This document shows, piece after piece, positions 1,084 through 1,769 of a stretch of 64,000 nucleotides of DNA (positions are counted from its first letter, which is position 1; each line of letters starts with the position of its first letter). The DNA lies in sequence record OP114733; one strand, 5' to 3'. The translations under genes and the position numbers were made by a program. The notes under the pieces are model-generated. The model saw nothing but the letters and a program-made list of their open reading frames with translations. It had not been told where the DNA came from and ran no database searches. Origin of the DNA: Escherichia phage vB_EcoM-pEB20.

Positions 1084-1314
1084 ATGTCTACTGAAACTAT
1101 CGAAAAACTGCAGTCTGAAATCGTTACTCTGAAATCTCGCATTCTTGATACTCAAGACCAAGCAGCTGCTATCCAGCAAGAATCTCAACAACTTGGTAGT
1201 GCTCTTGCTAAAATCGCTAATCTGGTTGGTATCACTGGCGAATCAGTTAAGATTGATGACCTGGTAGAAGCAGTACGTGAACTTGTTAAAGTTGAAACCA
1301 CAGAAGAAGAATAA
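1084..1314 (+). CDS. 57A: tail fiber assembly chaperone gp57A-like
   Basis: 76 aa helical protein ([17 protein letters not shown]); position between gene 1 and 57B as in T4. Confidence 0.75.
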
Positions 1315-1769
1315 TGAAATTTGAGGACTTTTCACAAGGCCTCTACGTCGCAGCTAAATTTTCAGAATTAACACTTGATGCGCTGGAAGACCTCCAGCGT
1401 AAATTAAGAATTCCTAATCCAGTACCACGTGAAAAGCTTCATTCAACAATTTGTTATTCACGTGTAAACATACCATATACTACATCTAGTGGTAGTTATT
1501 CTGTTGCCGAATCAGGACACTTTGAGGTATGGAAAACTGACGACGGCGCTGTACTGGTTTTAGTTCTTGATTCTGATTATCTTAGATGTCGTCATCAGTA
1601 TGCACGAGCTTTAGGTGCTACTCATGATTTCGACGACTACACTCCACATATAACGTTATCATATAACGTTGGCCAACTATCATTCAGTGGTGATGTAGCT
1701 ATTCCGGTTATTCTCGACCGTGAATACAAAGAACCCTTAAAACTAGATTGGGCCGAAGATCTGAAATAA
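1314..1769 (+). CDS. 57B: gp57B-like 2H-phosphodiesterase-fold protein (T4 57B has been reported as anti-CBASS Acb1)
   Basis: 151 aa; two H-x-[ST] motifs (LHSTICY, PHITLSY) typical of 2H phosphoesterases; synteny after 57A. Confidence 0.7.

Follow-up and report, generated by a model that had tools for sequence, protein, structure and literature searches.

The closest characterized relative of the locus presented here is gene 57B of bacteriophage T4. A cGAMP-degrading activity in T4 lysates was purified by activity-guided fractionation and mapped to this gene, the product of which is Acb1 (Hobbs et al., Nature 2022, PMC9117128). In the crystal structure, the enzyme has a closed pocket that takes only cyclic di- and trinucleotides, and its functional residues have been assigned in T4 numbering: a catalytic tetrad of the HxT/HxT type (H44, T46, H113 and T115), four base-stacking aromatics (Y12, W74, F107 and W147), a glutamate that touches the adenine N6 (E141) and a C-terminal lid formed by residues 145-152 (PMC9117128). 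Structures have been determined for Acb1 of Erwinia phage FBB1, both as apo form (7T26) and in complex with 3'3'-cGAMP (7T27), and all 10 Acb1 homologues tested by Hobbs et al. cut 3'3'-cGAMP as well as cAAA (PMC9117128). The LigT / 2H phosphoesterase superfamily (PF13563) has the same fold class and the same pair of H-x-T/S motifs, but a groove binding RNA ends is found there instead of the closed pocket for cyclic oligonucleotides (PMC9117128). Natural loss-of-function alleles of acb1 occur in related phages, for example a nonsense mutation in the BASEL phage Bas43, and guard systems of the Panoptes type fire upon depletion of adenosine-containing cyclic nucleotides (PMC12657230, PMC13577387).

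The DNA analysed here (the window) is a stretch of 64,000 nucleotides from Escherichia phage vB_EcoM-pEB20 (OP114733), and its relevant features are collected in Table 1. A first-pass annotation had pointed to an open reading frame with two H-x-T/S motifs and had taken it for a gp57B homologue that retains 2H phosphodiesterase motifs. The frame and both motifs can be read directly from the sequence, and the protein has no other H-x-[TS] site. By itself, such a pair would be weak evidence: at least two H-x-[TS] sites are found in 14% of composition-preserving shuffles of the 57B protein, and at least two sites of the form H-x-T-[ILV] in 0.1%. It is homology that lifts the observation beyond chance, since the Pfam Acb1 family, PDB entry 7T26 and T4 57B all agree on a 57B homologue with its 2H motifs preserved.

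Table 1. Features of the window discussed in the text (positions in nucleotides unless marked aa)
Feature	Position	Strand	Remarks
Gene 1, dNMP kinase	345..1079	+	PF21448 DNMK, E=1.4e-96
Gene 57A, tail-fibre assembly chaperone	1084..1314	+	PF17594 GP57, E=1.1e-22; phrog_1002
acb1 (gene 57B) CDS	1314..1769	+	ATG start, TAA stop, 151 aa, frame intact
First catalytic motif HSTICY	aa 43-48, nt 1440-1457	+	H43/T45 = T4 H44/T46
Second catalytic motif HITLSY	aa 112-117, nt 1647-1664	+	H112/T114 = T4 H113/T115
E140 (T4 E141, adenine N6 contact)	1731-1733	+	slightly 5' of the lid segment
C-terminal lid LDWAEDLK	aa 144-151, nt 1743..1766	+	= T4 145-152; contains stacking W146 (T4 W147)
Internal head protein gene, first	1850..2161	+	phrog_2667, E=1.9e-38
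Internal head protein gene, second	2211..2486	+	phrog_7673, E=2.6e-48
tRNA-Met (CAT)	3992..4065	+	
tRNA-Arg (TCT)	4072..4148	+	
Acb2/Vs.4 sponge homologue	16505..16771	+	88 aa; 65.5% identical to T4 Vs.4; PF24729, E=4.4e-18

The Pfam family Acb1 (PF23474) is matched with an E-value of 1.3e-58 and a score of 197.3 bits, against a gathering cut-off of 27, and residues 8-149 of the protein cover positions 1-144 of the 144 in the profile. Among solved structures, the best match is to Acb1 itself (7T26/7T27, E=2.9e-59, residues 9-148), with one single-residue indel. The protein shares about 64% identity with FBB1 Acb1 over 140 residues, and both HxT motifs and the lid tryptophan are the same in the two proteins. 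They differ by the indel, which lies in the loop following the W73 strand, and by the residue at W73, which is a tryptophan in T4 (W74) and a phenylalanine in FBB1; accordingly, the published residue numbers fit T4 (PMC9117128). An AlphaFold2 model predicted from the single sequence is unusable (mean pLDDT 38.7, pTM 0.28), and therefore it is by homology with 7T26 (chain A) that the protein is assigned the compact 2H phosphoesterase fold and its C-terminal lid. No NCBIfam model matches either the Acb1 or the Acb2 homologue of the window. Taken on its sequence, the reading frame is almost certainly acb1 (57B) of an RB69-like (Mosigvirus) T4-type coliphage, encoding an anti-CBASS cyclic-oligonucleotide 2H nuclease.

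The comparison with T4 57B (NP_049750.1, from NC_000866) by BLASTP gives 128 identities over 151 residues (85%), with 92% positives and no gaps. The two proteins are of the same length except for one additional N-terminal methionine in T4, so that residue n of the window protein corresponds to residue n+1 of T4. All nine functional residues are kept at the expected n-1 positions: the catalytic tetrad H43, T45, H112 and T114, which is aligned without a gap, and the ligand-contact residues Y11, W73, F106, W146 and E140. The lid is likewise the same, as is the place of the gene after genes 1 and 57A. None of the 23 substitutions concerns a residue named as functional. Loss of the catalytic histidines upon alignment had been set beforehand as the observation that would speak against this assignment; both are kept in the alignment with T4 Acb1. 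The first-pass annotation had also named T4 57B as Acb1, a degrader of CBASS signals, which is correct (PMC9117128). Its interpretation as a cyclic-oligonucleotide nuclease is supported by orthology; its one overstatement is the word "candidate", as the T4 orthologue is an enzyme that has already been characterized. On the strength of the alignment, the window protein is best described as a plain orthologue of an enzyme whose biochemistry and structure have been worked out, and the feature is a known one. From these relationships we infer that the window protein is active as an enzyme, which substrates it takes and that it counteracts CBASS.

Conservation was further examined in an alignment of 12 sequences, which spans about ten phage lineages with identities to the window protein as low as 30%. 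Besides the window and T4, it comprises homologues from Klebsiella phiA85, Serratia PS2, Acinetobacter Acj9, Escherichia ECD7, Aeromonas phage 25, Shewanella Thanatos-2, Vibrio K567, Klebsiella Tauntaun, Salicola SCTP-2 and FBB1. Invariant in all 12 are G9, Y11, K15, H43, T45, S49, V82, R93, G101, Y109, P111, H112, T114 and E137, and at least 90% of the sequences share E140. The homologue of Klebsiella phage Tauntaun_ER47 (L009 1459..2082) is annotated as a protein of 207 residues, and carries an extension of about 55 residues at the C-terminus, past the Acb1 domain, that neither the window protein nor the T4 protein has.

By analogy with the Acb1 proteins of T4 and FBB1, the window protein would be a small metal-independent 2H phosphoesterase. 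A U-shaped pocket is expected to clamp a cyclic di- or trinucleotide containing at least one adenosine (3'3'-cGAMP, cUA, cAAA and similar molecules), with the bases stacked by Y11, W73, F106 and W146, the adenine N6 read by E140 and the ligand covered by the closing C-terminal lid. Over the tetrad H43/T45/H112/T114, the 2'-OH of the adenosine would then attack the 3'-5' phosphodiester, and the ring would be opened via a 2',3'-cyclic phosphate intermediate, leaving a linear molecule that carries a 3'-phosphate. With the signal destroyed in this way, CBASS effectors would stay off, and the cell would not commit suicide before phage replication ends.

A different function is implied by the name under which the family is often filed. 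The protein matches phrog_755 of the PHROGs collection (E=2.6e-65), which bears the label "RNA ligase", and the RefSeq record of T4 57B is annotated likewise. This would make the protein a LigT-like 2'-5' RNA ligase or a 2',3'-cyclic phosphodiesterase acting on RNA ends, for instance in tRNA repair; the 2H fold is indeed common to LigT, and phage tRNA genes follow about 2 kb downstream of the gene. The only further Pfam match is also to this superfamily (PF13563, 2_5_RNA_ligase2), and it is weak: it covers residues 76-131 only, with an E-value of 0.023 and a score of 15.2 bits, which is under the gathering threshold of 27 and places the protein outside the LigT family. Moreover, T4 gp57B degrades cGAMP, and its closed pocket accommodates cyclic di- and trinucleotides only (PMC9117128). 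The label is a legacy name inherited from the fold superfamily and does not stand for a tested function. A role as an RNA ligase is thus highly improbable, and was rejected because of the failed Pfam membership and the conflict with the published biochemistry.

As in T4, the gene for the presumed Acb1 nuclease belongs to the conserved block 1-57A-57B. T4 and eight other T4-type (myovirus) genomes examined share the order 3-1-57A-57B, and the adjacency of 57B to 57A, correctly described as conserved in the first-pass annotation, is seen in nine genomes besides the window. The giant Salicola phage SCTP-2 has a homologue without the 1-57A-57B context. In the window, acb1 lies directly 3' of genes 1 and 57A, a context that is typical of T4-type phages, though not strictly defining. 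The TAA stop codon of 57A (1312-1314) and the ATG start codon of acb1 have one base in common (TAATG), whereas the overlap is 4 nucleotides in T4. A scan with a sigma-70-like consensus detects no strong site directly upstream of acb1; in nucleotides 1-3000, 15 promoter-like sites are found against 11.1 +/- 3.0 by chance. Because of the TAATG overlap and the lack of a convincing promoter of its own, it is suggested that acb1 is co-transcribed with genes 1 and 57A and translationally coupled to 57A.

Such a tight association with a tail-fibre chaperone gene, after which the locus is named, could also be taken to mean that 57B is an accessory factor in fibre assembly, or else a decayed, catalytically dead copy that is merely kept through co-transcription with 57A. 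Loss-of-function alleles like that of Bas43 (PMC12657230, PMC13577387) are a natural precedent for the latter. Unlike the Bas43 nonsense allele, the acb1 frame of the window is intact and full length, and no catalytic or ligand-contact residue has been lost. At the DNA level, the gene is 75% identical to that of T4, with differences that are overwhelmingly synonymous; pN is 0.119 and pS 0.695, from which the Nei-Gojobori method gives a dN/dS of 0.066, dS being close to saturation. This low ratio indicates that the 57B protein is under strong purifying selection. Furthermore, no report was found that ties 57B to fibre assembly. With selection acting on the protein and its key residues conserved, the pseudogene and fibre-assembly readings were rejected as extremely improbable.

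The assignment as an active Acb1 leaves room for differences in detail. Since 23 of the 151 residues are changed, the quantitative substrate preferences could differ from those of T4. One could imagine a more specific effect, in which the substitutions retune the choice of substrates towards less cleavage of a Panoptes decoy (2'3'-c-di-AMP or cA3) with cleavage of cGAMP maintained. If so, the Mosigvirus lineage would evade CBASS without triggering the Panoptes guard. All ligand-contact residues are, however, unchanged with respect to T4, and nothing observed favours such a retuning, which is considered very unlikely.

T4 encodes both the Acb1 nuclease and the Acb2 sponge, and the same pairing exists in the window phage. 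The window homologue of the T4 sponge (Vs.4) matches PF24729, the Acb2/Tad1 hairpin domain. In the mechanical list of open reading frames it starts at a TTG codon at 16337; the ATG at 16505 agrees with the T4 start. On the basis of an intact acb1 and an acb2 homologue, the phage is predicted to be resistant to many CBASS systems signalling with adenosine-containing cyclic nucleotides and to be vulnerable to Panoptes-type guard systems. This prediction is relevant to the forecasting of host range for therapeutic T4-like phages, and it does not open a new question.

By tblastn, the family is found in 1,469 phage records. The window region is 97-98% identical to RB69-like Mosigvirus coliphages such as AV118, mogra, ATK47 and 348Ecol098PP. 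Several Mosigvirus phages have an acb1 gene with 99.3% identity at the DNA level, and many phages in GenBank encode a protein that is 99.3% identical. The homologue of Escherichia phage 348Ecol098PP (WLY86521.1), for example, is the same in gene neighbourhood and 99.3% identical in both DNA and protein, and differs only by the conservative substitution D88E and two synonymous changes. This record already carries the annotation "cyclic phosphodiesterase". The gene is therefore real but already known, with near-identical copies in GenBank. Nevertheless, many orthologue records in GenBank and RefSeq, including that of T4 in RefSeq, are labelled "RNA ligase" or "hypothetical protein". For such records, the sequence comparisons support the name Acb1, anti-CBASS cyclic-oligonucleotide phosphodiesterase, and the correction of these annotations is the chief practical use of the analysis.

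Downstream of acb1, the gene content departs from that of T4. The neighbour is ipI in T4 and another internal head protein gene in the window, where two such genes occupy the ipI position. No homologue of T4 ipI, to which Hobbs et al. drew attention as an anti-defence gene beside acb1, is detected in the window at E<1e-3, so that the anti-restriction cargo beside acb1 differs from that of T4. The product of the first of the two genes starts with MKTYQEFIAEA, which is the N-terminus of T4 IPII and IPIII and resembles a capsid-targeting leader.

Further on, small open reading frames on the same strand (68, 126, 96, 171, 130 and 154 residues) fill the segments 2535..3912 and 4119..5362, and none has a Pfam match at E<0.01. 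These segments have the appearance of a typical T4-type hyperplastic region, and possibly house more anti-defence genes. The first 10 kb contain only two tRNA genes; T4 has eight tRNAs together with segB, rnaC and rnaD there. A mechanically called frame, 4119..4511, overlaps the 3' end of the tRNA-Arg gene, and its true start is probably an internal ATG (MKGNIY...).

The spacers after acb1 and after each of the two internal head protein genes contain promoter-like sites of the form TTTACA-N17-TAnnAT on the plus strand (1785..1819, 2162..2199 and 2490..2526). These overlap stable stem-loops at 1793-1819 (RNA fold z-score, z -4.0) and 2172-2199 (z -6.6), and a weaker one in the third spacer (z -1.1). 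The three spacer elements resemble the PeSL ("promoter-early stem-loop") cassettes that Arbiol et al. in 2010 reportedly described on either side of shuffled small genes in phages of the T4 type.
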